Shown piece by piece: positions 31,928 through 47,776 of a stretch of DNA of 48,323 nucleotides (positions are counted from its first letter, which is position 1; every line of letters starts with the position of its first letter). The stretch is from Candidatus Heimdallarchaeota archaeon (GTDB lineage: Archaea; Asgardarchaeota; Heimdallarchaeia; Hodarchaeales; Hodarchaeaceae): positions 1,029,161 to 1,077,483 of the forward strand of contig CP070695.1 in the NCBI GenBank assembly GCA_020353515.1, in the 5' to 3' direction. The position numbers were made by a program, and so were the translations under genes. The notes under the pieces were generated by a model. It did no database searches and was not told the DNA's origin. It saw only the letters and a program-made list of their open reading frames with translations.

Positions 31928-32965
31928 ATGACCGTGAAAGTTGGTATAAATGGTTTTGGACGCATTGGTCGTCTAGTATTACGTGCATTATTACAGATGC
32001 AAAAAGAAGTTAAAAAAAAGGTTGATATCATAGCTATCAATGATATTGCTGATAATGAACCCCTAGCTCACATGTTTGAGTTTGATTCGGTTCATGGACG
32101 ATTTCAGGGGACTGTAGAGGTTTCAGGGCAAGATAGCCTTATATTTGACGGGGATCATTTTTGGACATGTAAGGAAAGGGATCCTATACAGATTCCATGG
32201 AAAAAACTAGACACGGACATTGTGGTTGAGTGTACAGGCAAATTTCGGTTCAGAGATGGTATGCAAAAACATATTGATGCAGGAGCGAAGAAAGTACTAC
32301 TTTCAGCACCCGCAAAACCAGCAAACGATGTTGACATTACAATTGTACGTGGAGTCAACAATCAAGATTATGATCCAGAAAAACACACACTAATTAGTAA
32401 CGCCAGTTGTACAACAAATTGTTTGGCCCCAGTAGTAAAGGTTCTTGATGACAGCTTCGGTTTTGAACAGGGGATAATGACGACAATTCACTCATATACA
32501 AACAACCAAAGACTTCTCGATTCAATCCACAAAGATTATCGGCGAATGCGAGCTGCCGCCGTCAATCATTTTCCTACTAGCACAGGGGCATCAGAAGCAA
32601 CTGGATTAGTCCTTCCACATCTTAAAGGAAAAATTGACGGATTAGCTATCCGAGTACCTACAGCCAATGTCTCGATAGTTGATTTGACTTCTCGCCTCCA
32701 TCAGAACGTCAGTATTGAGGAAATCACTGATGCTTTCAGAGAAGCAGCTAAAGGTGATTTGAAAGGAATACTCGATGTTGAATGGAGAAGTTTAGTAAGT
32801 ACAGACTTTATTGGGAACCCCAATTCTGCAATAATAGATTTACCCTTCCTTCATCTTGTAGATCATAATATGTGCAAGATACTCGCCTGGTATGACAATG
32901 AGTGGGGATATGCTATGCGTTGTGCGGAAATGATTCATGAGATTTATGAAAAAGGGGTCAATTAA
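31928..32965 (+). CDS. gap: Class I glyceraldehyde-3-phosphate dehydrogenase
   Basis: 'GINGFGRIGR', 'ECTGKF', 'SNASCTTNCLAP', 'PTSTGA', 'RVPT', 'WYDNEWGY'. Confidence 0.97.
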   Translation: MTVKVGINGFGRIGRLVLRALLQMQKEVKKKVDIIAINDIADNEPLAHMFEFDSVHGRFQGTVEVSGQDSLIFDGDHFWTCKERDPIQIPWKKLDTDIVVECTGKFRFRDGMQKHIDAGAKKVLLSAPAKPANDVDITIVRGVNNQDYDPEKHTLISNASCTTNCLAPVVKVLDDSFGFEQGIMTTIHSYTNNQRLLDSIHKDYRRMRAAAVNHFPTSTGASEATGLVLPHLKGKIDGLAIRVPTANVSIVDLTSRLHQNVSIEEITDAFREAAKGDLKGILDVEWRSLVSTDFIGNPNSAIIDLPFLHLVDHNMCKILAWYDNEWGYAMRCAEMIHEIYEKGVN

Positions 32966-33014: not shown

Positions 33015-34613
33015 TTGATTCCCAAGGAAAAGAAATTTATCTCCGAAGTGGACGAATTATCAGGGCAAACACTGCAAAGAGCCGATAAAGTGGGATATGG
33101 AAGAAATGGGTATGTTGAGCAGAAAAATCATATAATAAAGTTATCTATTTCTAATTTAAAACTTGAATATATCCCAGAAAGTATAGAAAATTTAGAAGAA
33201 CTAAAAATTCTTTATATGGGAGGAAATTATTTAACTAAAATTCCTGATTCAATTTTAACATTGAGGAATTTGGAAGTTTTAGAAGCTTGGGAAAATAGGA
33301 TTGAATTAATCCCTAAAGATATCGGAATCTTGAATAAAGTTTGGCGATTACATCTTGCAGGGAACAAAATTACTGAACTCCCTGAAAGCATTGGTGATCT
33401 GCCAATGAAGAAACTGTATCTTAAACATAACAATGTTTGTTATGTTCCAGAGAGTATTGGGAACTGGATACGCCTCGATGTTTTCGGCCTCCCTCTCAAT
33501 AATCTTTCCTCACTACCAGAAACCATTAATGGTTGGAAAAATGTACGCGTAATCTCACTCTGGCAAAATAAGCTGAAAGCGTTGCCAGATGTTCAACTCA
33601 ACGTAAAAGAGTTACGTTTGAATAACAATTTTTTTACGGAAGTACCTCCACGGGTATACGAGATTCAACAATTAAGGAAACTTTGGTTGAACAGTAACCA
33701 ATTGACGGAGATACCAGAAATCCCGAAAGGACAGCTTAAAAATTTATGGTTCCTAAATTTACAGAATAACTTCCTTTCTTCATTACCCCGATCACTTCAG
33801 CAATTACCTAATCTTCGTGATTTAAGACTCTCTGGAAACCTGTTTGAGTCATATCCAGACTGGTTGGATTCCCTGGAAGGATGTAAAGTAGATAAATCGG
33901 CTCACAAACAACAGATTCAACAACCAGATTATATAGGGGTCAAGAAATATGTGAAATATCTCGAAGATCATCACTTACCAATAGAACATTTAGTGGAAAT
34001 TAAGCATTTTCAAAGATACCTTGAGAATGAGAAGGGGTTCTCCAGAATTGTTAAAGCAAAGGCAGATGATGTTAAAGATTTCATTTCACAGACAGAAATC
34101 ACACCTTTTGCCCTGAGATCTCTGTTTTTATATTTTTCTTGGCTTCAGGATTTTCCTTTACATCGAATTATTAAGGAAGAATTAGAAAATTACGCACAAA
34201 TAATGAATATCAATCTTCAAGATGTCAACCGACTTTCACAGGAATCTCAGACTGTGACCTCATTATTAACACTGGATGAAGAAGAGAAGAAACCTTCTCG
34301 CATTCTTTCTCAACCCCAAAGAGTTGAACCACGAATTGAGGGAGATGAATGGGAAGCTTTCATTGCTGAATTAGACAAAATCTCTTTTGAAGCTGTAAAA
34401 ATTCTCATTAAGTCTTCAAAACCCAAAATAGCACTTGAAAAATTCGCAAGAAGTCAAAATAGGCTTCCAGAGACTCTTCTTGAGGCTATTAATGAGTTGG
34501 CATTAGAGTTTATTGGTGACCTCATTGTTGATCAAGAGACCTATCAGATTACAGAAGATAATTATAAGGAAAAATTGCTTGAAATCTCATTTTCAAGTGA
34601 AAAACCAGAGTAA
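33015..34613 (+). CDS. LRR protein fused to an integrase-SAM-like helical domain and a C-terminal TerB_C domain
   Basis: About 11 LxLxxNxLxxLPxxI repeats. C-terminal 'INLQDVNRLSQESQTVTSLL...DEWEAF...LPETLLEAINELALEFIGDLIVD' aligns with the C-terminus of 36133..39615. Confidence 0.88.
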   Translation: MIPKEKKFISEVDELSGQTLQRADKVGYGRNGYVEQKNHIIKLSISNLKLEYIPESIENLEELKILYMGGNYLTKIPDSILTLRNLEVLEAWENRIELIPKDIGILNKVWRLHLAGNKITELPESIGDLPMKKLYLKHNNVCYVPESIGNWIRLDVFGLPLNNLSSLPETINGWKNVRVISLWQNKLKALPDVQLNVKELRLNNNFFTEVPPRVYEIQQLRKLWLNSNQLTEIPEIPKGQLKNLWFLNLQNNFLSSLPRSLQQLPNLRDLRLSGNLFESYPDWLDSLEGCKVDKSAHKQQIQQPDYIGVKKYVKYLEDHHLPIEHLVEIKHFQRYLENEKGFSRIVKAKADDVKDFISQTEITPFALRSLFLYFSWLQDFPLHRIIKEELENYAQIMNINLQDVNRLSQESQTVTSLLTLDEEEKKPSRILSQPQRVEPRIEGDEWEAFIAELDKISFEAVKILIKSSKPKIALEKFARSQNRLPETLLEAINELALEFIGDLIVDQETYQITEDNYKEKLLEISFSSEKPE

Positions 34614-34901
34614 ATTCCAATTATTATGATTTAATCTTATAATTTTATCCTCAATGAAGGAAAATTACCCTTTAATCGTAGAAATTGGTTTCGAGGAAAT
34701 ATAGGCTAAGTAATTGTTTAATGTCTATCCTTTTTGTAAAATTGAGGAAGCTACATTTAACATTGCTTGTTTCGAAATTGTGGAGAATCAAAAAAAGAGT
34801 TGGGATAAATTTTCTTCCGTTGTACATGAATTATCATTCCTGCAGGTAAAAAAAAGGGAGGTGGATGTAAATCTCAACTCCTTGTTGGATTTGGTGGGAT
34901 C

Positions 34902-35569
34902 TCATCGTTTTTGCTTTTTTCGTATAGTGATTATCACACCTATAGTAATGAGAAGATAGATGAAGCTTGGATAACTCGTATGAAATTCTGGAGTACATAA
35001 GGCCCACTGCCGATAGGCCAGTAATCCTCTGTATTAATGGTAGGATAACTTGTTAATGAAGGTATTCGTATCCTGGCCGCTTGAATTCGTATAAAAGGTG
35101 AATAGGAGGTTGAAAATGTAATACGGATCGTAAATTCATCGATAATCTCTACTGATTCAAGTGGCATAGTAAAATACGGAGTTATACCTTGTTCTTCTTT
35201 TGGAATTTCTGGATCATATCACTTAAGTTTAGTTGGATCGAGAATCATTTCAAATGCAGCAACTATTGCAACCCATTGTTTTGCTAAAGATGGAATAACC
35301 TCGTTTGTCACAGGATCTATTTCCACAAGTGTATCAAATGGAAGTAACAGTAATGAATGTGTATCATACATTGGGTGAAAGGTTGGTTCAAACTTCCCAT
35401 CCATCCCATTAATTATCGTAATAGACTTAGGTGGTTGTTGAAGTTGCACACTCCCAGATATTAGATTTGTGGTATCTTGGGAGACCATAGAAACTGGAAA
35501 TGTATTAATGGAAATAGCTAAAAGAAGAAATATTTGTATGGTAATTATGAACAAAGATTTGGAATTCAT
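34902..35569 (-). pseudogene. Decayed family-5 (OppA/DppA) ABC substrate-binding protein gene
   Basis: Signal peptide, 'FDTLVEID...IPSLAKQW', in-frame TGA at 35219-35221, 'VEIIDEFTIRITF', 'PIGSGPY', then a frameshifted anchor TSYPSFIYLLITIGVIITIRKKQKR* ending at 34902. Confidence 0.8.
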
Positions 35570-36132
35570 AGATGTATCCTTGCCAATTTTTCTCTATAAT
35601 TTGTAATTAAAACAGATATTATTTATGAAATTACTTGTTTTAAATCTTTCTACTCATTTCCACTGTTTTAATATGGTTTCAGCCTGTACTAACTTTAGAA
35701 CAGTTTTTTCCACCCATTTTTTGTATAGCTTTAATGATTTCAGACTTATGAACTAGCGAAAAAAAAGGTATTTTCATTCCTTTCAAACTAAGCTAATAAG
35801 AGACACTAGTTTAATACCAAAATACAAAATTTACTTATACAGAAATCGTTTACAGAAGAAATATTTCATTAATCTTGATATATAAATCTAACATCTTATG
35901 TACATGATATTAACCTTTTTAAATGCCTTCTCATTTAAAATTTACCGAAATTTGACAATTAATGAGTGTTTTCGCACTCTGGACAGTGTTTGGAGTTATT
36001 CTGATATTGAAGAAGGTGTGTAATAATATTATAAACAGTCAACCATATCATCCTCTTATTGAAATAATATTCTCTTCCTGACTCTGAATATCTCAAGAAT
36101 TAGAGTTGATGAAATAAGAAGACCTCAACGAG

Positions 36133-39100
36133 TTGTATGGAAAGCATTTTTCGATGTCAACGATTTTGACTATTGTTGCAGAAAATTTAAGGGTTAATAC
36201 AAAGGAAATAAGAGACTATCAGCTCGTTATCCCAAAAAGGTTCGAAAATATATTTCCTGTAGAAATCACGACAGTTTTAGCAGCTTATCAAGGGAGCCCT
36301 ACCCCTAACATTGGAGATTATTTTTCTTTTCAGGTTTCCTCCGAAAGTTCCTTAGTTCAGAGAGAATTATATGTTCAAATTGATGAAATTACTCCATTTG
36401 AATCAATATCAAAATATGCTAATAAAGAGGAAATCGAATCGATCCTCCAAATATCTCTAATAGAAATTGATTATTGGATAGTAGCAACAGTCCTTGGATA
36501 CTATTCTCCAAAAAGAAAGAAAATTTTAATGTCAGAAAATCCCCTCGTTGGGAAGGTAGGGAAGATTCCTGATTCAGAATCCATATTAATTTTTCTAAAC
36601 CAATATATGGAATGTCTATTTTACAGTTTCCCCCTTAAACTAATAAATTACTTAGTCCATAACTCGACTCAAGGAAGTAAGTTCTGTCAAAGAGGGAATA
36701 CCAAGATTTTAGAGAATATACTTCCTAAAATTATGAAAAAGATTAATAACCACTTTTTAGACGTTCAGAGCAAAAATTTTCTTAATATGTTTCCATCACA
36801 AACCAATTTCACCATTACACAAGAAACTACAAATGTTAATGATATTAAGCACGAATATATAAATTGGCTTGCATCTAATAAACCAATGGTGGATTTCTTT
36901 ACTGATATATTGAAATTCACTGAAAAAAAACTCAGTTTGATTGTGAAATATCGAGGTAAAGTGGAAGTAAATCCAAGACCTCTTAATAATCAGATCAAGG
37001 AAATAATCCATATAGAACTAAAGAAATATGAAACGAGGATACAACCAAAAAGGAAATTGAATAAAAAGCAACTAATTTTTGCAGAGTTTGAAATAGGTTT
37101 CACACCGAAGAAACAAGTCAAAATATCCATAATAAAACCTGAAGTGAAACCTCAAGAACGAATATACAGTAGGAAGCCTGCCTCCGTTGAAACCAAAGAG
37201 ATTATCTCCAAAACTCATGAAAATCAAGGAAATATTAGTGAACTTGAAACCAAGATGAAGGTCGCTGCTCACTCTCTGGATTTTAAACAAGCATCCCGAA
37301 TTCGTGAGAAACTCGAAGATTTAAAGGGAGTATGTTGCGTTAAAGTAGTAGAAGAACCGCAATCTGATTTTAAAACAGCTATCGTTGAAGAAATTCCTAG
37401 AATCCCTAAATTCGTCCCATTTGAGCAATATTGGCCTACTTTAGATACAATGAATGAGGATCAAAAGAGTTGGTACGATCATTGGGTGTCAGAAATCGAA
37501 AATGGACATTATTATCCAACCGATTTGTCTTATATTTTTCTTTATATATATCAAATACTTGATTATGAAGATAAAGAAAAAGGTTATCGTTTACTACGAG
37601 AGATTTGGATCCATTACCGAAGAGAACATCCTAAATTGGACCATTATTTAATTGATTGGATTACAGATTATATCCTTCTACATGATTGCCATTATGATCA
37701 AAGAACCATAAATAAAGAACTAATAAAATTTCATTCAGAATATACGGTAGAATGTCTCGACTCAATTCTGACATTATTCCCACCCCGTTTTAAAGAAATA
37801 CCAATTGATTGGATTAATGTTCTGGCAAATAACAGTATTAAAAGCAGTACTTTTTATTTATCGAAACCAAAAGTCATGAACCAAATTATCCCTGAAGTAC
37901 TTGACGCAATTGACCGACATTATCACGAGACTGAAAACATAGGCTTATTAGAGAAATTTAAGCCTGATAAAGTGGCACGATTCGTTTTTGATAAAGCACT
38001 CAAGGATGAAAGTTATCTTACGAAGACTATTGAAATTTTACCCTACACAAAGTCACCTCCTTTTCTTGTTTTCATCGTAGAGGTTGTAAGGACAACAGAG
38101 AGTAAACTCCGTAAGTATTATCGTTTTCCAGCTCTTCCTCATATCAGTATGTTAGAAAGAGAAATTGAGAAAGTAATTGAAACTATATTTACCAAATTTA
38201 TTAGCGAGTTAAGTTTAACTGAACATGAGACAGAATTATCCTTCATTGATGCCGCGCAAAATTATGTCAATAGGATCGAGGATGAAGTTAAACCAGTTCC
38301 TCTTTACCAATTTCAACCTAACTATCAAGATATGACAAAAGCTCAATTACAATGGTACTTTTATTGGCGTAACCAGGTTAGGAATGGCAACTTTATCTCT
38401 GCTCAAATTGGGTACATTATATTATATATCTATGAAATCATTAATGATATTGGAATCCAAGATCCTCAAGAGGGTTATAAACGATTATTAGCTCTGTGGG
38501 AATATTACCGTATTGATAATCCTGAGTTGGATGAATATTTCCCTGAATGGATCGTGGAATATGCAATTCTAAATGACATACCTGTTGATAACATTGAGGA
38601 ACTCTATCATACGATTTTAAGTAGATTAGATGGAAGAGAACAGAGAGATCTTCGATATGAATTAACAGAGCTTCTACTCTTTCAGTTTCAACAGGAAGCT
38701 TTTAGCAAAATTCCAATCAGAATGATTTATGAGCTTGTGGGTTACTCGAATTTTCTTCCCTATACCCGATTAAATGATTCAGTTCGGTCTACAATAGATC
38801 AGCATGTGGGGTCTATACTAAATGAAGTGAATAATTATTATCTGCATAAATACCAAAAAGGGTTGTTAGAATTCTTTAGTCCCACTAAAAAACGAAGAAT
38901 CCCCTTTGTTCTCGCCCGATATTTTGGTGAGACTGATATATTAGAGATAAAAGGTTTTTCTCGACAATTCTTAAATTTTTTAGATAATACAATAAGATTC
39001 ATTCAAAATCGTTTCCGTGATATTGAGTTTGATACAACTAAAACCCGATTAAAGGCTGTTATTCCAGATCCTGAAGTTGAAGTCTTGATTGATTATTATT

Positions 39101-39615
39101 TCATAGATAACTTAAATGCCACAAACATCATGCCTAAATATTCTAAAATTGTTTTACAGGTTCAAAGTGGCGATTTAGGTGTGGATCAATCTAAAATAAA
39201 GGCATTAACCGAAGAATCCGATGAAATTCAATCCCTCTTAAGAACTACCGACACATTTGAGTTCGAGCAGGAAGAACCTATACTTGATTTAGAAGCGGTT
39301 CAAGAAGAAATTGAAGAGCCAACTAATCAAGATATTGCTCAGAAAACGGAAATAAGCGGATTAGATGAGTGGGATCTGTTTCGATCAAGATTGACTGATC
39401 TTCAACTAAAGGTTTTAAGGATATTATTGCGTAGTAAAACCCCAAAAGAGCAATTAGATCAGATTGCTAAGCAAACTAGCACTTTACCAGAAGCAATAAT
39501 AGAATCCATTAATGAAATCGCACTTGAGATAATAGATGATATTATAATTGATTCTGAACTTCTTAACGTTATTGAAGAGTATCTAGATAGATTGAAGTCG
39601 ATTATCACGAAATAA
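36133..39615 (+). CDS. sngA: Shango SngA-like TerB_N/TerB_C protein (HAS-barrel-like N-terminus, UVR coil, 2x TerB_N, TerB_C)
   Basis: TerB_N 'FEQYWPTLDTMNEDQKSWY...TDLSYIFLYIYQIL' and 'PNYQDMTKAQLQWYFYWR...GYIILYIYEIINDIG'; TerB_C 'IKALTEESDEIQSLL...LPEAIIESINEIALEIIDDIIID'. Likely start ATG 36154. Confidence 0.85.
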   Translation: MYGKHFSMSTILTIVAENLRVNTKEIRDYQLVIPKRFENIFPVEITTVLAAYQGSPTPNIGDYFSFQVSSESSLVQRELYVQIDEITPFESISKYANKEEIESILQISLIEIDYWIVATVLGYYSPKRKKILMSENPLVGKVGKIPDSESILIFLNQYMECLFYSFPLKLINYLVHNSTQGSKFCQRGNTKILENILPKIMKKINNHFLDVQSKNFLNMFPSQTNFTITQETTNVNDIKHEYINWLASNKPMVDFFTDILKFTEKKLSLIVKYRGKVEVNPRPLNNQIKEIIHIELKKYETRIQPKRKLNKKQLIFAEFEIGFTPKKQVKISIIKPEVKPQERIYSRKPASVETKEIISKTHENQGNISELETKMKVAAHSLDFKQASRIREKLEDLKGVCCVKVVEEPQSDFKTAIVEEIPRIPKFVPFEQYWPTLDTMNEDQKSWYDHWVSEIENGHYYPTDLSYIFLYIYQILDYEDKEKGYRLLREIWIHYRREHPKLDHYLIDWITDYILLHDCHYDQRTINKELIKFHSEYTVECLDSILTLFPPRFKEIPIDWINVLANNSIKSSTFYLSKPKVMNQIIPEVLDAIDRHYHETENIGLLEKFKPDKVARFVFDKALKDESYLTKTIEILPYTKSPPFLVFIVEVVRTTESKLRKYYRFPALPHISMLEREIEKVIETIFTKFISELSLTEHETELSFIDAAQNYVNRIEDEVKPVPLYQFQPNYQDMTKAQLQWYFYWRNQVRNGNFISAQIGYIILYIYEIINDIGIQDPQEGYKRLLALWEYYRIDNPELDEYFPEWIVEYAILNDIPVDNIEELYHTILSRLDGREQRDLRYELTELLLFQFQQEAFSKIPIRMIYELVGYSNFLPYTRLNDSVRSTIDQHVGSILNEVNNYYLHKYQKGLLEFFSPTKKRRIPFVLARYFGETDILEIKGFSRQFLNFLDNTIRFIQNRFRDIEFDTTKTRLKAVIPDPEVEVLIDYYFIDNLNATNIMPKYSKIVLQVQSGDLGVDQSKIKALTEESDEIQSLLRTTDTFEFEQEEPILDLEAVQEEIEEPTNQDIAQKTEISGLDEWDLFRSRLTDLQLKVLRILLRSKTPKEQLDQIAKQTSTLPEAIIESINEIALEIIDDIIIDSELLNVIEEYLDRLKSIITK

Positions 39616-40968
39616 TTGCCTGAAGGACGCATTACAACAATGTCGAAGAAAAGAATACCACAACGTGTTTCAGCGACAATACTAAAATCCTTGAGTGCTG
39701 GGGTAGTGCCCCGGATAGGTCTTGAACATATCGCAGTAGGTCGAAAAGAAGAAATTGAATCATTATTAGAAGATTTGGAAAATATTGAAGTGGGTAGTGC
39801 AGCTTTTCGGTTTTTTATTGGACGATATGGATCTGGTAAGAGTTTCTTGATTCAACTGTTAAGAAATTATGCCATGGATCGGGATTTCGTTGTTGCTGAT
39901 GTAGATTTATCCCCAGCACGACGATTCATTGGCGGGGGAAATAAAGGCGTTGCTACATATCGTGAACTCATTACAAATATGTCCACAAAGACTCGTCCTA
40001 GTGGGGGCGCATTAACAGCTATTTTAGAGAAATGGATCTCCAAGATTCAATCCATGGTGATCATTGAAAAAGGGATTAAACCTCAAGACCCTATTTTTGT
40101 GGATCAAGTGGAAACAGAGATAATAAATGCAGTAAATAACATTAAGGATTTAGTCCATGGTTTTGATTTTGCTACCGTTATCTCAACCTACTGGCGAGGG
40201 CATAAATTAGGGGAGGAAGAGACAAAAGAAAATGCACTTCGATGGTTACGAGGGGAATACACAACTAAAACTGAGGCACGAAATGCCATAAGTGTTAGTG
40301 TCATTGTTGATGACGATTCTTGGTATGATTATATCAAGTTACTAGCACGGTTTATCACAGAAATTGGATATAAGGGACTTTTGATCTTTTTTGATGAGGC
40401 TGTCAACTTATATAAGATCACCCATACCCAATCAAGAACCAACAACTACGAGAAACTCTTGACAATGTATAATGACACCATGCAAGGAAAAGCTGAGTAT
40501 CTCGGAATTTTTGTGGGGGGAACTCCCCAATTTTTGGAAGATCGCCGAAGAGGTCTCTATAGCTATGAAGCACTTCACTCAAGACTTGTAGAAAGCCGAT
40601 TTACAAAGAATGGGCTCCGTGATATTTCAGGCCCTGTCATTAAACTTGAACGATTATCCTTAGAAGAAATTTTTGTACTATTAACTCGAGTTATGAATGT
40701 TCATGCTCTCCACTATAAGTATGAAACTTTTTTAACAAATAATGAGCTTCAAGAATTCATTAAAATAATAGTAAGCCGTATTGGGGCCGATAAACTCCTT
40801 ACTCCCCGAGAATTTGTGCGGGAATTTATTATTTTATTAAATATCTTACGGAGGAATCCGGAACAATCCTTCTTAGGCCTTATTCATGGTGAAGACTTCA
40901 AACCACAAGCCCCAAGTCAAGTAGAGGAATCAGTCAAAGGTACAGAATATGAGGAATTTACCTTATGA
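39616..40968 (+). CDS. sngB: DUF2791/BrxD-like P-loop ATPase (Shango SngB-like)
   Basis: 'LSAGVVPRIGLEHIAVGRKEEI', Walker A GRYGSGKS, 'ALRWLRGE', Walker B 'FFDEAVNL', 'GLYSYEALHSRL', 'TPREF'. Likely start ATG 39640. Confidence 0.92.
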   Translation: MPEGRITTMSKKRIPQRVSATILKSLSAGVVPRIGLEHIAVGRKEEIESLLEDLENIEVGSAAFRFFIGRYGSGKSFLIQLLRNYAMDRDFVVADVDLSPARRFIGGGNKGVATYRELITNMSTKTRPSGGALTAILEKWISKIQSMVIIEKGIKPQDPIFVDQVETEIINAVNNIKDLVHGFDFATVISTYWRGHKLGEEETKENALRWLRGEYTTKTEARNAISVSVIVDDDSWYDYIKLLARFITEIGYKGLLIFFDEAVNLYKITHTQSRTNNYEKLLTMYNDTMQGKAEYLGIFVGGTPQFLEDRRRGLYSYEALHSRLVESRFTKNGLRDISGPVIKLERLSLEEIFVLLTRVMNVHALHYKYETFLTNNELQEFIKIIVSRIGADKLLTPREFVREFIILLNILRRNPEQSFLGLIHGEDFKPQAPSQVEESVKGTEYEEFTL

Positions 40969-43205
40969 GTGACACTATTTTCAACCGATTTCCTGCATTC
41001 ATTCAAGAATGGATATATTCACATGGATGGGAGGAATTACGTGAAATTCAGGTTGCTTCTGCTCAAGCGATATTTGAGACAAAAGATCATGTGTTATTGG
41101 CAACAGGTACAGCCAGTGGGAAGACAGAGGCAGCTTTTTTTCCTGCATTAACACTAATTTATGAAGATCCTCCTGCAAGTATTGGTATCCTTTACATCTC
41201 ACCTTTGAAGGCTTTAATTAATGACCAATTTAACCGTATTGAGGAATTGTTAGAGGAAGCGGAGATTTCAGCTTGGCCGTGGCATGGTGATATCCCTCGA
41301 AATTTAAAAAGAAAGCTAATTGAAAATCCTAGTGGTGTTCTCCAAATTACACCTGAATCTATGGAAAGTTTGTTAATAAATAGGCAACAAGAATTACGTA
41401 GGATGTTTGGTGATCTTCGATTTGTGATCATAGATGAAGTACATGTATTTATGAATGCTGAAAGAGGAACTCAAATCTTATGTCAATTAGAACGCTTGGG
41501 GAATATCATTGGCTATCATCCCCGACGTATAGGTCTTTCAGCGACTCTGAGCGACTATAGCTCTGCAGAAAAGTGGTTAAGTTCGGGAACCAATATTCCA
41601 GTGAATACTCCGAAGGTACAGGGATTAATCAAAAGAATAAGATTAGCTGTTGAGAATTTCATAGATCCTAATCCCAATCCAGCTGGAATAATGCAGTATG
41701 GTGAGAGTGGTGAGTTGGTTGCTCCTGCTACAGAACCTTCTTCAGAACCATACCCCTCGAATATGTATTTATTTGATCAAACGTTAAATCGTCAGTGTTT
41801 AATCTTTACTAATACCCGAGAACGAGCAGAAAGCACAATTAATGCTCTTCGGGCAATTGCTGACCAAAAACGATTTCCGAATCGGTATTATGTTCATCAT
41901 GGAAGTATTTCAGCTTCTCTTAGAGAAGAAGCAGAATCAATTATGAAAACAGGGGACATTCCTTCAGTTACAGCATGTTCAGTTACATTGGAATTAGGAA
42001 TTGATATTGGATCTCTGGAAAGAATTATTCAAATTGGATCCCCACGAACGGTTTCCAGTTTTTTACAGCGTTTAGGACGATCAGGTAGAAAGGAAGCTGA
42101 TGTCTCTGAAATTCTTTTCATCCATTCGGAAGAAGAACCATCAGATAATAAGCCATTACCTTACCTAATACCTTGGGAATTGATCCAATCTGTTGCAATC
42201 ATCAATTTATATTTAGAAGAACGCTGGATTGAACCAATACGAGAATTGAAGTCGCCCTTCAGTTTATTATATCATCAAACAATGTCCTCTTTAGCTTCTG
42301 CGGGCGAGCTCTCTCCTCAATCTCTCGCTCAACGAGTTCTTTCCTTAACGCCATTTCAACACGTCTCTCAAGACAATTATCGGACTCTTATTCGTCACCT
42401 CATTGAATTAAATCACATTGAACAAATTGAAGATACAGGGGGAGGTTTAATCGTTGGTTTAGATGGTGAACGAGTTGTTAGAAATTATCGATTTTATGCT
42501 GTATTTCCTGATGTCGTAGAGTGGACAGTGAAAGATACTGAAGGATTTGATGAAATAGGCAAAGTTGGACAATTATTTCTCCCTGGAGATCGGTTTCCAC
42601 TTGCAGGATATACTTGGGAAGTTAAAGAAATCTATCCCGATCAAAAAATGATAATTGTTTCGAAAGTAGGCGGTCGTACAAGGTATTTCTGGCCTGGAGG
42701 GATTGCTCCTGTGCATACTAAAGTCCTTCAACATATGCGAAAAATCCTCTTTGAAGATAAAATTTATCCTTATCTGCAAGCTGGTGCTGCTGAACGTATT
42801 CAACAGGTTAGAACACTAGCCCGAGAGGTAAGGATGGATAAACGAGCACTTTTTCAACTCGCAGGTCACAAATTTGTACTTATTCCTTGGTCTGGGTCAA
42901 TTTCGTTTCGAACAATTAGAAGAATATTGGAAATACATTCTGAAGAACTGGGGATCAGGAGCTTGAATGAACAGTCTCCATATTTCTTCTTATTTGAAGC
43001 TGAAGACAAAGAAAGAGAGAGTCTTGAATCAGAGATTAAAAAATTGTGTAAGAGAATTGAATCACCTTCCGAGCTTGTCAAAGAGGATGAAATCTTTGTT
43101 TGGCGGAAATTTGACCAATATATCCCAACAGATCTCCAACAACAGACATTAATGGATGATTACTTGGACTTGGAAGAAGTTAAAGAAATTATCAAGAACT
43201 GGTGA
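40965..43205 (+). CDS. sngC: Lhr-like DEAD/DEAH helicase (Shango SngC-like), copy 1
   Basis: 'TASGKTEAA', 'SPLKALINDQ', 'TPES', DEVH, SAT, 'TLELGIDIG', 'QRLGRSGR'. ATGA overlap with the ATPase. Confidence 0.92.
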   Translation: MSDTIFNRFPAFIQEWIYSHGWEELREIQVASAQAIFETKDHVLLATGTASGKTEAAFFPALTLIYEDPPASIGILYISPLKALINDQFNRIEELLEEAEISAWPWHGDIPRNLKRKLIENPSGVLQITPESMESLLINRQQELRRMFGDLRFVIIDEVHVFMNAERGTQILCQLERLGNIIGYHPRRIGLSATLSDYSSAEKWLSSGTNIPVNTPKVQGLIKRIRLAVENFIDPNPNPAGIMQYGESGELVAPATEPSSEPYPSNMYLFDQTLNRQCLIFTNTRERAESTINALRAIADQKRFPNRYYVHHGSISASLREEAESIMKTGDIPSVTACSVTLELGIDIGSLERIIQIGSPRTVSSFLQRLGRSGRKEADVSEILFIHSEEEPSDNKPLPYLIPWELIQSVAIINLYLEERWIEPIRELKSPFSLLYHQTMSSLASAGELSPQSLAQRVLSLTPFQHVSQDNYRTLIRHLIELNHIEQIEDTGGGLIVGLDGERVVRNYRFYAVFPDVVEWTVKDTEGFDEIGKVGQLFLPGDRFPLAGYTWEVKEIYPDQKMIIVSKVGGRTRYFWPGGIAPVHTKVLQHMRKILFEDKIYPYLQAGAAERIQQVRTLAREVRMDKRALFQLAGHKFVLIPWSGSISFRTIRRILEIHSEELGIRSLNEQSPYFFLFEAEDKERESLESEIKKLCKRIESPSELVKEDEIFVWRKFDQYIPTDLQQQTLMDDYLDLEEVKEIIKNW

Positions 43206-45487
43206 GGGATCTGGCCTCGGATCAATTCTATCGTCTTGCTCCATGGATTCAAGAGTGGATTTATCGGCGGCAATGGGAGGTATTTAGACCAATTCAAGAA
43301 GAGGCTTGTAAAGTTATATTCGATACTCCCCACCATCTGTTGTTAGCGACTGGAACTGCCAGTGGGAAGACCGAAGCAGCATTATTTCCTATCTTGACTC
43401 TATTGGATCAAAATCCTTCTGCAAGTGTTGGGGTATTGTATATTGGACCATTAAAAGCTCTTATTAATGATCAGTTCCAGCGAGTAGAGGATCTCCTTCA
43501 AGAGGCGGATATAAAAGTCTGGCGATGGCACGGAGACGTCTCACAGAGTCATAAAGCCAAATTAGTTAAAAATCCAAACGGATTACTACAAATCACTCCA
43601 GAATCATTAGAAAGTTTATTAATCAATCGTACAACTGATTTACGAAGACTCTTTGGGGATCTACGATTCGTCATTATTGATGAAGTGCATGCGTTCATGC
43701 CTCAATTATCGGATCGAGGAAGACAGGTTCTTTGTCAACTTGAGCGGCTTCAAGAGTTTGTAAACCGAATTCCACGACGAATTGGTCTTTCAGCAACACT
43801 TGGTGATTATTCATATGCGGAATATTGGCTTGCTTCAGGCACTAATCAATCTGTTATTACTCCGATTACAAATGAACCCTCGAAAAAACTTAGGCTAAGT
43901 ATTGAACATTTTACTGAAACAACATGGTATCGAGCAAAAATGAGAGGACAACCCCCACCACGTGGCCTTGATCTCCCATCACATAGATGGATCTTTGATT
44001 TAGTTTTAGGAAGAAAATGTATAATTTTTCAGAATGATAGAGAAAGAACTGAACTTGTGACTCATGGATTAAGAGAAATCGCTAAATCAAAAGGATTACC
44101 TGATGTATACCACACGCATCATTCATGTATAGCAGGTTTGCTTAGAGAGGATGCAGAGGAGTTCTTGAAAGAAAAGAATGGAGTCCCCCATGTTGTTGCA
44201 GCAACTATGACTCTAGAGTTAGGCATTGATATTTCTGATGTGGAAAGGATTATCCATGTAGATAGCCCTCATGCTGTTTCCACATTCGTACAACGTTTAG
44301 GAAGATCTGGTAGAGTAAATAACGCATCAGAGATGTTATTTGCAATTTCTGAGAACCCCAAGACAGATCGAACACCTCTTGCATATCAACTCCCCTATCG
44401 GTTATTACAGGCTATCGCTGTTGTCGAGCTCTATCTCGATGAACGATGGGTCGAACCTGCAATTCCCCTCAAAAAGCCATTTTCAATCTTATTCCATCAA
44501 ACAATGTCTATCTTAGCCTCTGCTGGTGAACTTTCTCCTCAGGCGTTAGCTCAAAGAGTGTTATCACTTTCTCCTTTCAAGAATATTACCCAGGCTGAAT
44601 TTCGCGTATTATTAAACCATCTTCTCAAAAATGATTACATCGAACAAATTCAAGATGGGGGTTTGGTGCTTGGACTCGCTGGAGAAAAAATAGTCCGAAA
44701 TTACCGTTTTTATGCAGTATTTCGAGACTATGCTGTTGACTATTCAGTGAAAGAGGGGACACGAGAGATTGGCCATATTGAACAACTCCTTGAACCAGGT
44801 GATCAATTATTAATAGGCGGATATCCTTATCGAATAACCCAAGCTTACCCCAAACAAAAGCTCATGCTAGCTGAAAAGATAACTGACAAACCATTGTACG
44901 TATGGCCAGGGAGAATAGCACCTGTTCATACGAGAGTAGTTCAACGCATGCGACGTTCTCTCTTTGAAGAAAAAAATTATTCATTTCTCCAAAGAGGCGC
45001 ACAGCTCCGACTTAAGGAAGGCCAATTATTCGCCAAAGAGCAGCAGTTAGATAAAAAGGTCTTATTACAAGAGTCAAAAAGCAGGTATAGCCTGCTCCCA
45101 TGGATGGGGTCTACACCTTTCAGAACTCTTCTTCGTATATTAAAATTTCTTGGTCCAAACACCTTAGGGATCAATTGGGTACAACCTGAGCCTGTAACAA
45201 CAACAGATCCTCATCTTCCAGTCCATGTGGTTCAATTTGAAACTGGTAATTATAATAACGTCAATTCGCTTTATAAAGATCTATACAATCTAGTAGAAAG
45301 CGTTTCAGAGAAAGAATTACATCAATTATATGATCAGTCTGAAAAATTTATTTATGAGAGATACCATCATCTATTACCAATAGACTTGCAGCGAGAGGTT
45401 TTAGTTCATAATTACCTGGATCTTGAGGAGGTTAAGAGTGTCATTCGTACGTGGGAGGATTATTCTGTTTACTGGCAAGAAAATTGA
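43202..45487 (+). CDS. sngC: Lhr-like DEAD/DEAH helicase (Shango SngC-like), copy 2
   Basis: Same complete motif set (TASGKT, DEVH, SAT, TLELGID, QRLGRSGR). GTGA overlap with copy 1. Confidence 0.9.
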   Translation: MRDLASDQFYRLAPWIQEWIYRRQWEVFRPIQEEACKVIFDTPHHLLLATGTASGKTEAALFPILTLLDQNPSASVGVLYIGPLKALINDQFQRVEDLLQEADIKVWRWHGDVSQSHKAKLVKNPNGLLQITPESLESLLINRTTDLRRLFGDLRFVIIDEVHAFMPQLSDRGRQVLCQLERLQEFVNRIPRRIGLSATLGDYSYAEYWLASGTNQSVITPITNEPSKKLRLSIEHFTETTWYRAKMRGQPPPRGLDLPSHRWIFDLVLGRKCIIFQNDRERTELVTHGLREIAKSKGLPDVYHTHHSCIAGLLREDAEEFLKEKNGVPHVVAATMTLELGIDISDVERIIHVDSPHAVSTFVQRLGRSGRVNNASEMLFAISENPKTDRTPLAYQLPYRLLQAIAVVELYLDERWVEPAIPLKKPFSILFHQTMSILASAGELSPQALAQRVLSLSPFKNITQAEFRVLLNHLLKNDYIEQIQDGGLVLGLAGEKIVRNYRFYAVFRDYAVDYSVKEGTREIGHIEQLLEPGDQLLIGGYPYRITQAYPKQKLMLAEKITDKPLYVWPGRIAPVHTRVVQRMRRSLFEEKNYSFLQRGAQLRLKEGQLFAKEQQLDKKVLLQESKSRYSLLPWMGSTPFRTLLRILKFLGPNTLGINWVQPEPVTTTDPHLPVHVVQFETGNYNNVNSLYKDLYNLVESVSEKELHQLYDQSEKFIYERYHHLLPIDLQREVLVHNYLDLEEVKSVIRTWEDYSVYWQEN

Positions 45488-45514: not shown

Positions 45515-46516
45515 ATGAAAATAAATGAAGTTATCAAGAAATTATTAGCTTCAAAGGATCCAGCAATTCAATTAAAGGTGTATTTACGACTACTGGAACA
45601 TGATTATGAGAGTCACGAAGTTCAGAAAGTAGTATCTGTCATCAAAGAGTCACCTGTGGTTTCAGGATTACTAAGCGCCCTTTCAGCTCAAGAAAAGGTA
45701 TATAATACAAAAGAGATCGGAGAGGGACGTGTTTATAAGAAGTGGGAAGGAATTCATTGGGTATTGGCGGACTTGGCAGATATTGGTTATCCCCCAGGAG
45801 ATCAAACATTACTAGCAAGCATTAAACTTGAGTTGAACTGGTTATTAAGTAAGAAACGCTGGGCAAGTAAGAAGACACTTAATGGACGAAAGAGATTTTG
45901 TGCTTCTCAAGAAGGGAATGGATTATTTTCAATTACATCACTCGGACTAGCAGAACATGTCTTGGAGGAATGTTCAATTCTAGCTAATCGTTTAATTACC
46001 TATCAATGGCAGGACGGAGGATGGAATTGTGATGTGCGACCTGAAGCAAAAAACTCATCCTATCATGAAAGTGCAATTCCCCTAAGAGCATTGAACGTCT
46101 TTGAGAGAAGAACTAGCGATCCGAAGGCAAAAAAAGCAGTCGACCAAGCATCAGAATTGTTTCTCAAGAGAAGATTCTATAAAAAATTGAATACCAACAA
46201 AATTATTGATAGGAATTGGACAAAATTATCGTATCCTTCATATTGGATGTATAACTTCTTCTTTGGATTGAAAGTGATCGCTGAATGTGGAAAAATAGAA
46301 GATTCTCGGTGTGAAGATGCTTTACAGTTACTCGAATCCAAACAACTCCCTGAGGGAGGATTTCCAGCAGAACAGAAGAATTTCTTTACTAATAAAAGGT
46401 CTCGCTATTCTCCAGTTGACTGGGGAGAATTAAATAGACGGAAAATGAATGAATGGGTCACAATTGACGCGTTCTATATTTTGAAAGAAGCAAACAAAAT
46501 CGATCTTGAAGTATAG
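45515..46516 (+). CDS. Prenyltransferase/squalene-cyclase-repeat (alpha/alpha barrel) protein of unknown function
   Basis: QW-type motifs 'QWQDGGWNC' and 'QLPEGGFP'; 'YKKWEGIHW', 'YPSYWMY', 'NEWVT'. Confidence 0.7.
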   Translation: MKINEVIKKLLASKDPAIQLKVYLRLLEHDYESHEVQKVVSVIKESPVVSGLLSALSAQEKVYNTKEIGEGRVYKKWEGIHWVLADLADIGYPPGDQTLLASIKLELNWLLSKKRWASKKTLNGRKRFCASQEGNGLFSITSLGLAEHVLEECSILANRLITYQWQDGGWNCDVRPEAKNSSYHESAIPLRALNVFERRTSDPKAKKAVDQASELFLKRRFYKKLNTNKIIDRNWTKLSYPSYWMYNFFFGLKVIAECGKIEDSRCEDALQLLESKQLPEGGFPAEQKNFFTNKRSRYSPVDWGELNRRKMNEWVTIDAFYILKEANKIDLEV

Positions 46517-46540: not shown

Positions 46541-47776
46541 TTATGTCAAGCGTTTTAGTTTGTCTAATACTACAAAGTAAGCTTTCTTTTCTAATTCTTC
46601 AAGTAGTATACTTTTTCCATTTAAAAAGAAGTCAATAATATAGGGATGGGCAGCTTGAGGAATGTTTAATTTCTTAAATTCGCTCCTATCCAACTCGTAA
46701 ACATCTTCAGGATGTGTTTCAAGAAATGCAGCAGCTTTGTTTAACTGATATGTTTCACCTTTTTCTTGAATAATATTTAAACTTACGTAAGCTGCTCTCA
46801 TTAAGATTTCAGCAAGTCGGAGATTATTTTCAATCCGTCCAGGAGGAATATATCGTCTTGAAGTGTAAGGCAGCTCAAATTCATGATTAAATTTGTATGC
46901 TTTTATCTCTGGATAGATGAGATTGAATTTTTTTAATTGAAAATGATCTAATGTTCCATATTTGTTATTATTGCCGTACAGTTGGCGATATTTAGATAAC
47001 AAATGAGGATATTGTTTTTGGATTGTACGGAAAAACCCCTCTTTATTTCTTCCAGGTTTTAAGGTTAAGGACCAAACATATACAAACTCTGCCCCAACTT
47101 TTTTTGCTTCTTGGAATATAGAATTCATGTTTTCGTCTGTATCCCCAATAAATGGTAATGGGGGATAAAAATATACCCCTGAATGAATCCTTTCTTCCCT
47201 TAGTTTCTGAATTGCTTTGAAGCGTTCGGAGGTTGTACTTGCACGGGGTTCAAAGATTTCTTGAGCATTTTCATCCGCTAATGTAATACTGAAATTTACT
47301 GCTGCGTATGTTCTCTCATTTATCTTTTTAAATAAGTCTAGGTCTCTTAAAACAAGTGTATTTTTTGTTAATATTTGTACAGGAACATTATACATATATG
47401 CAAGATGTAATAATGTACGAGTCATTTTCACCTGTTTCTCTGCAGGCTGATAGACATCACATACACCTCCTCCAATAAATAGAATGAATTTTGGTTTAGG
47501 GCCTTTTTTCTCTAATTTTAAATGATCTTCTAGAGTAGAGCCTGATACCATACCTTGCTTTTTTAAAAATCGTTCAAGCAAGTGAGGGGCATTCTTCTTG
47601 ACACGAATACGATTACCAAAGTCTTCATGCATGTGATATACTTCAGATTTACCATCACAATACTGACAATCGTGATAACAGCCCTGATAAGGATTAAGAT
47701 AGTGTTCAGACCAAGAAAAAAGTGAGGGCGAGCTATTCCGCATTAGAGTCTTGGCATAATACTCTTCTATAATCAT
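46541..47776 (-). CDS. Radical SAM protein, SPL/Rv2578c-like family
   Basis: 'LNPYQGCYHDCQYC', 'DVYQPAE', 'ILTK', 'FEPRA...ERF', 'PLPFIGD'. Confidence 0.88.
   Translation of the reverse strand: MIIEEYYAKTLMRNSSPSLFSWSEHYLNPYQGCYHDCQYCDGKSEVYHMHEDFGNRIRVKKNAPHLLERFLKKQGMVSGSTLEDHLKLEKKGPKPKFILFIGGGVCDVYQPAEKQVKMTRTLLHLAYMYNVPVQILTKNTLVLRDLDLFKKINERTYAAVNFSITLADENAQEIFEPRASTTSERFKAIQKLREERIHSGVYFYPPLPFIGDTDENMNSIFQEAKKVGAEFVYVWSLTLKPGRNKEGFFRTIQKQYPHLLSKYRQLYGNNNKYGTLDHFQLKKFNLIYPEIKAYKFNHEFELPYTSRRYIPPGRIENNLRLAEILMRAAYVSLNIIQEKGETYQLNKAAAFLETHPEDVYELDRSEFKKLNIPQAAHPYIIDFFLNGKSILLEELEKKAYFVVLDKLKRLT

Follow-up and report, generated by a model that had tools for sequence, protein, structure and literature searches.

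Candidatus Heimdallarchaeota archaeon (Asgardarchaeota; Hodarchaeales) carries in its 4.94-Mb single-contig genome (GCA_020353515.1, contig CP070695.1) a stretch of 48,323 nucleotides, positions 1,029,161-1,077,483, hereafter the window, in which the gene for a leucine-rich repeat (LRR) protein ending in a TerB_C domain precedes, on the same strand and at a distance of 1.5 kb, an operon of the defence system Shango. The question that this locus raises is whether the LRR protein is a working part of Shango and, if it is, what it contributes. Shango consists of the TerB-like protein SngA, the ATPase SngB and the DEAD/DEAH helicase SngC (10.1101/2022.05.11.491447; 10.1101/2022.11.11.516204), and its activity in anti-viral defence has been demonstrated for the Pseudomonas aeruginosa and Escherichia coli systems only (10.1101/2022.11.11.516204; 10.1101/2022.05.11.491447). 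A 2025 preprint describes the role of TerB-domain defence proteins as still unclear (10.1101/2025.09.30.679545), and in the literature searched we found no paper that links LRRs with Shango or describes the mechanism of Shango. The locus in the window is a variant of this known system, and what is new in it is an LRR-fused paralogue of SngA. We put the probability at roughly 0.55 that it represents a lineage-specific form of Shango with two SngA-type subunits, in which the LRR paralogue couples to SngB and SngC through its C-terminal half (C-half).

The Shango operon and the LRR-fused SngA paralogue

PADLOC calls a Shango operon at 36133-45487, comprising SngA (1.7e-94), SngB (1.4e-187) and two copies of SngC (8.5e-227 for SngC1 and 7.2e-212 for SngC2). 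Pfam agrees, with TerB_N (3.6e-41) and TerB_C (8.6e-12) in SngA, BrxC_BrxD (formerly DUF2791; 5e-166) in SngB, and DEAD and Helicase_C in both helicases, WH_Lhr remaining under the cut-off; TerB-N and TerB-C are understood here in the Pfam wording quoted in 10.1101/2021.07.23.453527. No nucleotides separate sngA from sngB, sngB overlaps sngC1 and sngC1 overlaps sngC2 by 4 bp each, and the co-directional A-B-C order within a single cluster is the Shango layout. For comparison, 80 loci were fetched from reference genomes by means of a diverse SngB alignment, 78 of them from other lineages, and scanned with local TerB_C, TerB_N, LRR and SngC profiles; most of the 78 share the A-B-C order. SngB is ~60% identical to its bacterial homologues, and the two SngC proteins are 49% identical to each other (BLASTP). 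In the second-best PADLOC matches the operon resembles BREX, SngB matching BrxD (3.4e-51) and SngC matching BrxHI (2.1e-117), but the Shango models score far higher and the locus encodes no methyltransferase, BrxA/B/C or PglZ. The core operon is thus an ordinary Shango of an Asgard sub-lineage: PADLOC models recognize its three components, whose order and shared strand are those of the described systems; it differs from these in the upstream LRR-type SngA paralogue, in three TerB_N-like segments in SngA and in the second SngC copy. Its defence role in an archaeon is a putative one.

The long SngA contains TerB_N-like segments at residues 146-221 (partial), 423-611 and 703-918, as detected with a local TerB_N hidden Markov model (HMM), followed by TerB_C at residues 1003-1154. 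Tandem TerB_N makes up most of the 700-residue "extension" of this protein, and a UVR motif at residues 368-398 scores 21.4 bits, just below the Pfam cut-off of 21.5. The two TerB_C domains of the Shango/LRR locus and its SngB are the only ones in the genome.

The second TerB_C domain belongs to the LRR protein. Pfam finds in this protein LRR_8 (1.1e-19) and, at residues 393-520, TerB_C (3.4e-10; 40.7 bits against a cut-off of 26.3), and the families detected, LRR families and TerB_C only, include no NB-ARC, NACHT or other NTPase domain. Pfam likewise detects no TerB_N, and the local HMM detects none in the two orthologues from the genus that are among the 80 loci (L108, L109). The similarity to SngA extends beyond TerB_C: the PADLOC SngA model matches residues 328-519 along model positions 330-522 of 528 (4.8e-15), BLASTP aligns the tails of the LRR protein and SngA with 31% identity over 118 residues (E 7e-11), and hhalign aligns residues 332-525 of the LRR tails to the post-TerB_N region of 36 SngA proteins over 191 columns (99%, E 4.9e-18). 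The last match implies that the LRR protein holds essentially the whole C-half of SngA and not TerB_C alone. Judged by sequence, the LRR protein is a paralogue of SngA in which an LRR solenoid has replaced the TerB_N modules and the C-half has been kept. In a quick tree, the clade of the LRR tails is tight (99), its stem is long (1.2 changes per site), and it belongs to a moderately supported group (SH-aLRT 84) that includes the Asgard long-SngA tails, a placement that fits a local duplication of the SngA C-half and its fusion to an LRR.

Reading frames are intact in all orthologues, and the two homologous halves show parallel conservation profiles, the mean pairwise identities in the LRR protein and SngA being 0.81 and 0.87 for the middle domain, 0.47 and 0.43 for the linker, and 0.71 and 0.72 for TerB_C. 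The most conserved part of the LRR protein is the LRR domain itself, with long invariant runs and an identity of 0.84 within the one genus sampled, compared with 0.82-0.83 for the full TerB_N domains of SngA. A first-pass annotation of the window, made from its letters and open reading frames (ORFs), had delineated the LRR gene, sngA, sngB and two sngC genes, called the locus Shango-like, aligned the two tails by eye, read the LRR C-terminus as TerB_C and ascribed the DNA to a probable Asgard archaeon; the analyses above, together with the taxonomy and the names of the homologues described below, bear it out on all these points.

The full-length AlphaFold2 (AF2) model of the LRR protein was built from 15 orthologues, and a separate model of the tail (residues 296-532) from an 87-row alignment that included SngA tails. 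The solenoid, residues 1-295, is confidently modelled, with predicted local distance difference test (pLDDT) values mostly of 70-94, and its Foldseek matches are Leptospira LRR proteins, SHOC2 and a Roco LRR at E 1e-12 to 1e-10. The tail model (mean pLDDT 77) consists of a six-helix domain at residues ~309-418, a disordered linker and a compact TerB_C core at residues ~445-523, with pLDDT of ~75-87 in the helical middle domain and 88-93 in the core. In VIA-align comparisons, residues 304-398 superpose on XerD with a Z of 9.0 and a root-mean-square deviation of 2.0 A over 81 residues, on XerA with a Z of 8.9 and on the N-domain of a haloarchaeal integrase with a Z of 8.8; integrases provide more than 15 of the top 50 matches, although Z values below ~13 may merely reflect a common helical arrangement. 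The TerB_C core reaches Z 6-7 against winged-helix domains (WHDs), among them those of NLR/Apaf-1 proteins, Cdc6/ORC and MarR. For helical folds such Z values are moderate, and Foldseek returned no match to the tail model at E <= 0.001; the core-binding-like and winged-helix likenesses are therefore treated as fold-level leads only. No tyrosine-recombinase catalytic domain (R-K-H-R-H/W-Y) is present in the LRR protein, which has no Phage_integrase match and continues from the middle domain into the linker and TerB_C. A sequence search of the PDB with profiles of the SngA C-half and SngB likewise gave nothing significant. The models suggest the same layout for the C-half of SngA: first a helical domain resembling the core-binding domain of integrases, then a disordered linker, and last the acidic, winged-helix-like TerB_C. 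Both proteins have an acidic TerB_C core (isoelectric point, pI, about 4.5-4.6), and in the LRR protein the helix at residues 485-507, which corresponds in place to the recognition helix of a winged-helix domain, bears six acidic and no basic residues; the middle domain of the LRR protein has a pI of 6.2. As modelled, the acidic helix argues against a canonical DNA-binding reading and for a protein- or cation-binding surface.

Distribution, gene order and the region upstream of sngA

Relatives of the LRR protein are few and closely related. A search of 5.8 billion proteins returned 14 homologues, all LRR proteins of ~530 residues with TerB_C, whose tails are 67-89% identical; every named one is from Asgard archaea, under Promethearchaeota, Hodarchaeales or Heimdall-type labels. 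A profile search run without filters against 1.84 billion representatives recovered the LRR-TerB_C family as just one representative and one fragment. LRRs were absent from the other 149 top TerB_C matches, the other LRR proteins of the genome that were examined are LRR-only, and the LRR tail had no relative on viral contigs. Among 400 genomes of the phylum, the LRR tail occurs in 7 of the 22 species of one genus, and SngB in those seven species, in G058 of the same genus and in a few other Asgard genomes. Within the genus, therefore, seven species have both the LRR gene and SngB, one has SngB only, 14 have neither, and none has the LRR gene alone. In a tree of EF-2, the LRR-bearing species fall into one weakly resolved group, whose only two members without the gene are incomplete genomes. 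The distribution looks like roughly one evolutionary gain in one subclade. GAPDH was rejected in favour of EF-2 as a distance marker because it is itself accessory, being found in 4 of the 22 genomes.

Wherever linkage can be read (the window, G068, G072, G075, G076, G077 and L006), the LRR gene precedes sngA and is co-directional with it. The two genes are separated by 260-750 bp in G072, G075, G076, G077 and L006, by 1.5 kb in the window and by 6 kb in G068. The genes upstream of the LRR gene vary and encode the hypothetical protein p240, an MFS transporter, GAPDH, a nitroreductase or a CxxCxxCC protein, whereas the downstream flank, marked by a radical-SAM gene, is conserved between relatives. 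As the upstream flank differs between genomes, the LRR gene travels with Shango. In more distant species there is no synteny around the flanking radical-SAM gene, so that an empty site cannot be read. G066 was considered as an unlinked, degraded case and dropped, as its record consists of ~4-6 kb pieces joined by runs of 100 Ns, in which the piece with the LRR gene stops within the conserved block described below and the piece with Shango begins within SngA and stops within SngC2. The record (L005/L048; CP070760.1) resembles a closed 3.16-Mb chromosome; gene order across its N-runs is unreliable, and its completeness of 70% fits this structure.

The spacer between the LRR gene and sngA consists, in the window, of a lineage-specific insertion with two small ORFs, neither of which has a Pfam, PADLOC or NCBIfam match, and of a conserved non-coding block. 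The insertion is missing from G072, G075, G076, G077 and L006. At the same place G068 has an insertion of ~5.7 kb (L043:3155-8817), compared with 1.2 kb in the window, and homologues of both small ORFs bound the insertion in each of the two genomes, a pattern that a small mobile element may have left. The block, ~270 nt long, lies directly upstream of sngA and constitutes the entire spacer in G072 and G075. Across seven genomes its mean column identity is 84%, columns 28-218 are free of indels, and it holds TATA-like boxes and short palindromes such as AACATGTT. The Shango loci of G058 and G283, which have no LRR gene, are without it. A small ORF was rejected as an explanation, given in-frame stops in five of the seven genomes and no codon periodicity, and a structured RNA is not supported (covariation term +1.34, with 2 of 57 pairs compensatory); Rfam has no family for the block and yields only a chance-level match elsewhere in the spacer. 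From its sequence, the block is probably a lineage-specific promoter/operator. The LRR gene has conserved upstream motifs of its own in relatives and, given these and the TATA-like boxes of the block, the LRR gene and the Shango operon would form two adjacent transcription units.

Two neighbours of the locus deserve mention. In the window a GAPDH gene lies 49 bp before the LRR gene and displaces the conserved motifs that are seen there in relatives; the other genomes among the 4 of 22 species that have it carry it elsewhere. Downstream of SngC2, a 333-residue ORF with no family match was considered as a part of Shango and rejected, being missing at that position in G075 and G068. Its homologues lie near a radical-SAM homologue in the Shango-less G060 and G073, and its ties seem to be to the radical-SAM gene rather than to Shango.

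Features of the LRR/Shango locus, in window coordinates unless a locus handle is given
Feature	Position	Strand	Description and evidence
GAPDH gene	31928-32965		upstream neighbour
LRR-SngA(C-half) fusion protein	33015-34613	+	532 aa; LRR solenoid in place of TerB_N; Pfam, PADLOC, hhalign
N-cap and ~11 leucine-rich repeats, aa 1-295	33015-33899	+	AF2 model; Foldseek
Helical middle domain, aa 304-398	33924-34208	+	tyrosine-recombinase core-binding-like fold (predicted); tail model; VIA-align; hhalign (332-398)
TerB_C core, aa 442-529	34338-34601	+	acidic, winged-helix-like (predicted); tail model; VIA-align
Lineage-specific insertion with two small ORFs	34614-35869	.	between LRR gene and conserved block
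Small ORF in insertion	34714-34959	+	81 aa
Small ORF in insertion	35219-35569	-	116 aa
Conserved non-coding block, ~270 nt	35870-36132	+	directly upstream of sngA; probable promoter/operator
Same block in relatives	L040:3795-4057; L041:7979-8240; L042:9399-9683; L006:11866-12128; L043:8818-9106		
Same block in relatives	L044:996-1284	-	
SngA (long)	36133-39615	+	1160 aa; Pfam, PADLOC, local TerB_N HMM
SngB, BrxC_BrxD/DUF2791 P-loop ATPase	39616-40968	+	450 aa; Pfam, PADLOC
SngC1, Lhr-like DEAD/DEAH helicase	40965-43205	+	746 aa; PADLOC, Pfam DEAD and Helicase_C
SngC2, second Lhr-like helicase	43202-45487	+	761 aa; PADLOC; BLASTP
ORF after SngC2	45515-46516		333 aa
Radical-SAM gene	46541-47776	-	downstream flank

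TerB_C proteins and Shango loci in other lineages

The 78 Shango loci of other lineages allow the peculiarities of the window to be separated from the ordinary variation of the system. Exactly one gene ending in TerB_C is present in 74 of the 78, in most of them directly upstream of sngB, and no LRR was found near Shango at any of them. SngA exceeds 1000 residues in about ten, and two SngC copies occur in four Bacillota loci of the Clostridia type (L149, L160, L162, L184). The Asgard duplication of SngC is common to the window, G058 (L045) and G283 (L046) and is separate from that in Clostridia, each clade having 100% support, so that, on the sequence trees, two-SngC loci are of at least two independent origins; since G058 and G283 lack the LRR gene, the Asgard duplication is older than that gene. 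The locus had been announced as an "expanded" Shango, and a long SngA and two SngC copies are indeed there, but neither is new, as bacteria have both.

Exchange of the N-terminal module has a precedent. At seven of the 78 loci, mostly cyanobacterial (L111, L112, L116, L120, L121, L122, L176), a coiled-coil-TerB_C protein occupies the SngA position; it has no TerB_N according to Pfam, and the PADLOC SngA model matches it only over ~285-527, at ~1e-17. In L111, L120 and L176 the gene of this protein is immediately preceded by one for a DUF815 AAA ATPase. We found no description of this TerB_N-less coiled-coil subtype of Shango in the literature searched. These loci resemble that of the window in that the N-terminal module is replaced and the C-half kept, the match to the PADLOC SngA model covering ~285-527 there and 330-522 here. 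They differ in that the variant is the sole SngA-type gene and lies just upstream of sngB, whereas the LRR protein, whose replacement module is not a coiled coil, coexists with a TerB_N-type SngA and is encoded upstream of sngA. As far as sequence comparison can tell, the C-half is the constant element beside SngB and its N-terminal partner appears exchangeable.

TerB_C is also found away from Shango. TerB_N is missing from 84 of the 149 top TerB_C matches, and in 44 of 46 long TerB_N-less proteins TerB_C stands behind mostly coiled-coil regions. Two coiled-coil-TerB_C proteins that were looked up (P0031 in L105; P0046 in L106 and L107) are encoded in cyanobacteria among housekeeping genes, with neither sngB nor sngC nearby, and in the quick tree such housekeeping-context copies share a clade (99) with coiled-coil copies encoded beside sngB. 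Since stand-alone and sngB-adjacent copies share a clade, SngA-type paralogues can apparently leave Shango, and the coiled-coil-TerB_C proteins suggest traffic between Shango and non-defence roles. SepT (All2460) is a septal protein with TerB-C (PMC10653889). Like other cyanobacterial coiled-coil-TerB_C proteins, it resembles the LRR protein in having a C-terminal TerB_C and no TerB_N; unlike the LRR protein, proteins of this type are encoded away from sngB and sngC, and SepT has transmembrane helices, is septal and has no link to defence (PMC10653889). The domain is common to the LRR protein and SngA, but the housekeeping coiled-coil-TerB_C proteins and SepT show that it is no mark of Shango, which weakens the earlier suggestion that TerB_C is a shared docking module.

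Possible roles of the LRR protein

If the locus is a Shango variant with two SngA-type subunits, the LRR protein would be a SngA paralogue with some 11 repeats in the place of TerB_N and the whole C-half retained. This C-half would couple SngA-type proteins to the SngB/SngC motor, which we infer because it is constant across Shango while the N-terminal part varies (TerB_N, tandem TerB_N, coiled coil). The LRR protein would engage this motor too, acting as a second input or adaptor subunit that delivers the ligand bound by its LRR, and the complex would serve anti-viral defence in its Asgard host. The conservation of the LRR makes a conserved host or viral protein a likelier ligand than a fast-evolving epitope. 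The parallel conservation of the halves that the two proteins share counts for this proposal, as do the match of the LRR tail to the SngA C-half, the confinement of TerB_C and SngB to this one locus of the genome, the presence of SngB in all seven LRR-bearing species, the constant place of the LRR gene before sngA, the coiled-coil loci in which TerB_N is likewise replaced, the grouping of the LRR tails with Asgard long-SngA tails and the intact frames of the orthologues. A more specific version, in which the LRR protein is a second recognition subunit whose LRR binds a viral or host-derived protein and signals through the C-half to SngB and SngC, is put forward tentatively and seems to us rather doubtful.

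Several observations weigh against a second subunit. The LRR gene never abuts sngB, the place next upstream of which is the usual one for a SngA-type gene, and it would be a separate transcription unit, set off from sngA by a spacer of at least 260 bp with its own TATA-like elements. None of the 78 Shango loci of other lineages has a second TerB_C gene, so that there is no independent precedent for two SngA-type subunits. TerB_C is not specific to Shango, and the tree indicates that SngA-type paralogues can work without SngB and SngC. The adjacency of the LRR gene and sngA may simply reflect an origin by local duplication. The first-pass annotation had proposed to test the co-occurrence of LRR-TerB_C proteins with sngBC, and had reasoned that LRR-TerB_C homologues independent of sngBC would speak against a link; none was found, sngB being present in 7 of the 7 LRR-bearing genomes, but with roughly one gain in one subclade of the EF-2 tree the co-occurrence and the adjacency are not independent replicates and are weak evidence. 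The idea of an LRR-receptor immune system also meets a difficulty in the LRR itself: its surface, by its sequence, does not look like that of a fast-evolving receptor, being conserved (0.84) and not hypervariable. NLR/STAND receptors share with the locus an LRR solenoid, a winged-helix-like module (Z 6-7 to NLR WHDs) and an ATPase, here encoded beside the LRR gene. Unlike them, the LRR protein has no NB-ARC or NACHT, and the ATPase is a separate protein of the BrxC_BrxD family. Of that idea the Shango operon and the SngA-type tail stand. With a conserved LRR and no STAND NTPase domain, the locus is like eukaryotic LRR immune receptors by analogy, in single parts, and the systems are not homologous.

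Two other roles have to be weighed against the proposed second subunit. The LRR protein might instead regulate Shango, either by competing with SngA for the shared partner and holding the motor off until a ligand occupies its LRR, or by acting on the DNA block upstream of sngA with its core-binding-like and winged-helix modules. Competition is plausible for a protein with the same C-half as SngA, a conserved LRR is what a fixed partner would require, and the modelled resemblance of the middle domain to a DNA-binding core-binding domain (Z 9.0) would suit an operator-binding protein. Since the ~270-nt block and the LRR gene co-occur, the block being found at all LRR-linked loci and not in G058 and G283, whose Shango loci have no LRR gene, such a role keeps its place among the alternatives. 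Operator binding, however, cannot be the general role of a C-half that is part of SngA at all Shango loci, which lack the block, and neither the "recognition" helix, with six D/E and no K/R residues, nor the middle domain, with its pI of 6.2, favours binding to DNA. Overall we consider a regulator unlikely. The remaining alternative is that a local duplicate of the SngA C-half became fused to an LRR and took up a job unrelated to Shango, such as scaffolding or localisation, with SepT-like cyanobacterial proteins as the model; its place beside sngA would then reflect nothing but a recent origin at that spot. This alternative would account for a separate transcription unit, for a single-gain distribution in which linkage is possibly historical and for the long stem of the LRR tails (1.2 changes per site), suggestive of altered constraints, and it has parallels in TerB_C proteins outside Shango contexts (PMC10653889) and in the clade shared by sngB-adjacent and housekeeping copies. 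Yet the adjacency has outlasted at least five reshufflings of the upstream flank and two spacer insertions, no genome has the LRR gene without Shango, and the C-half has kept the conservation profile of that of SngA, which together make an independent function improbable in our view.

The wider meaning of the locus is bounded by its narrow distribution, roughly a single gain in one genus, which limits generality. Within that bound, the TerB_N, coiled-coil and LRR forms of SngA suggest that the C-half is the constant core of SngA-type proteins and the N-terminal module the exchangeable part; if the C-half indeed couples to SngB and SngC, it would be the universal coupling module of Shango, and TerB_N one of several exchangeable inputs. 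The LRR form offers a protein-binding input for Shango and a natural experiment on how the system is built. Should the LRR protein prove to be a second recognition subunit, Asgard archaea would possess an immune complex with two receptors and one effector. If the LRR protein works with Shango, the archaeal lineage closest to eukaryotes would supply one of the rare examples in which a defence motor of prokaryotic type carries an LRR recognition module.

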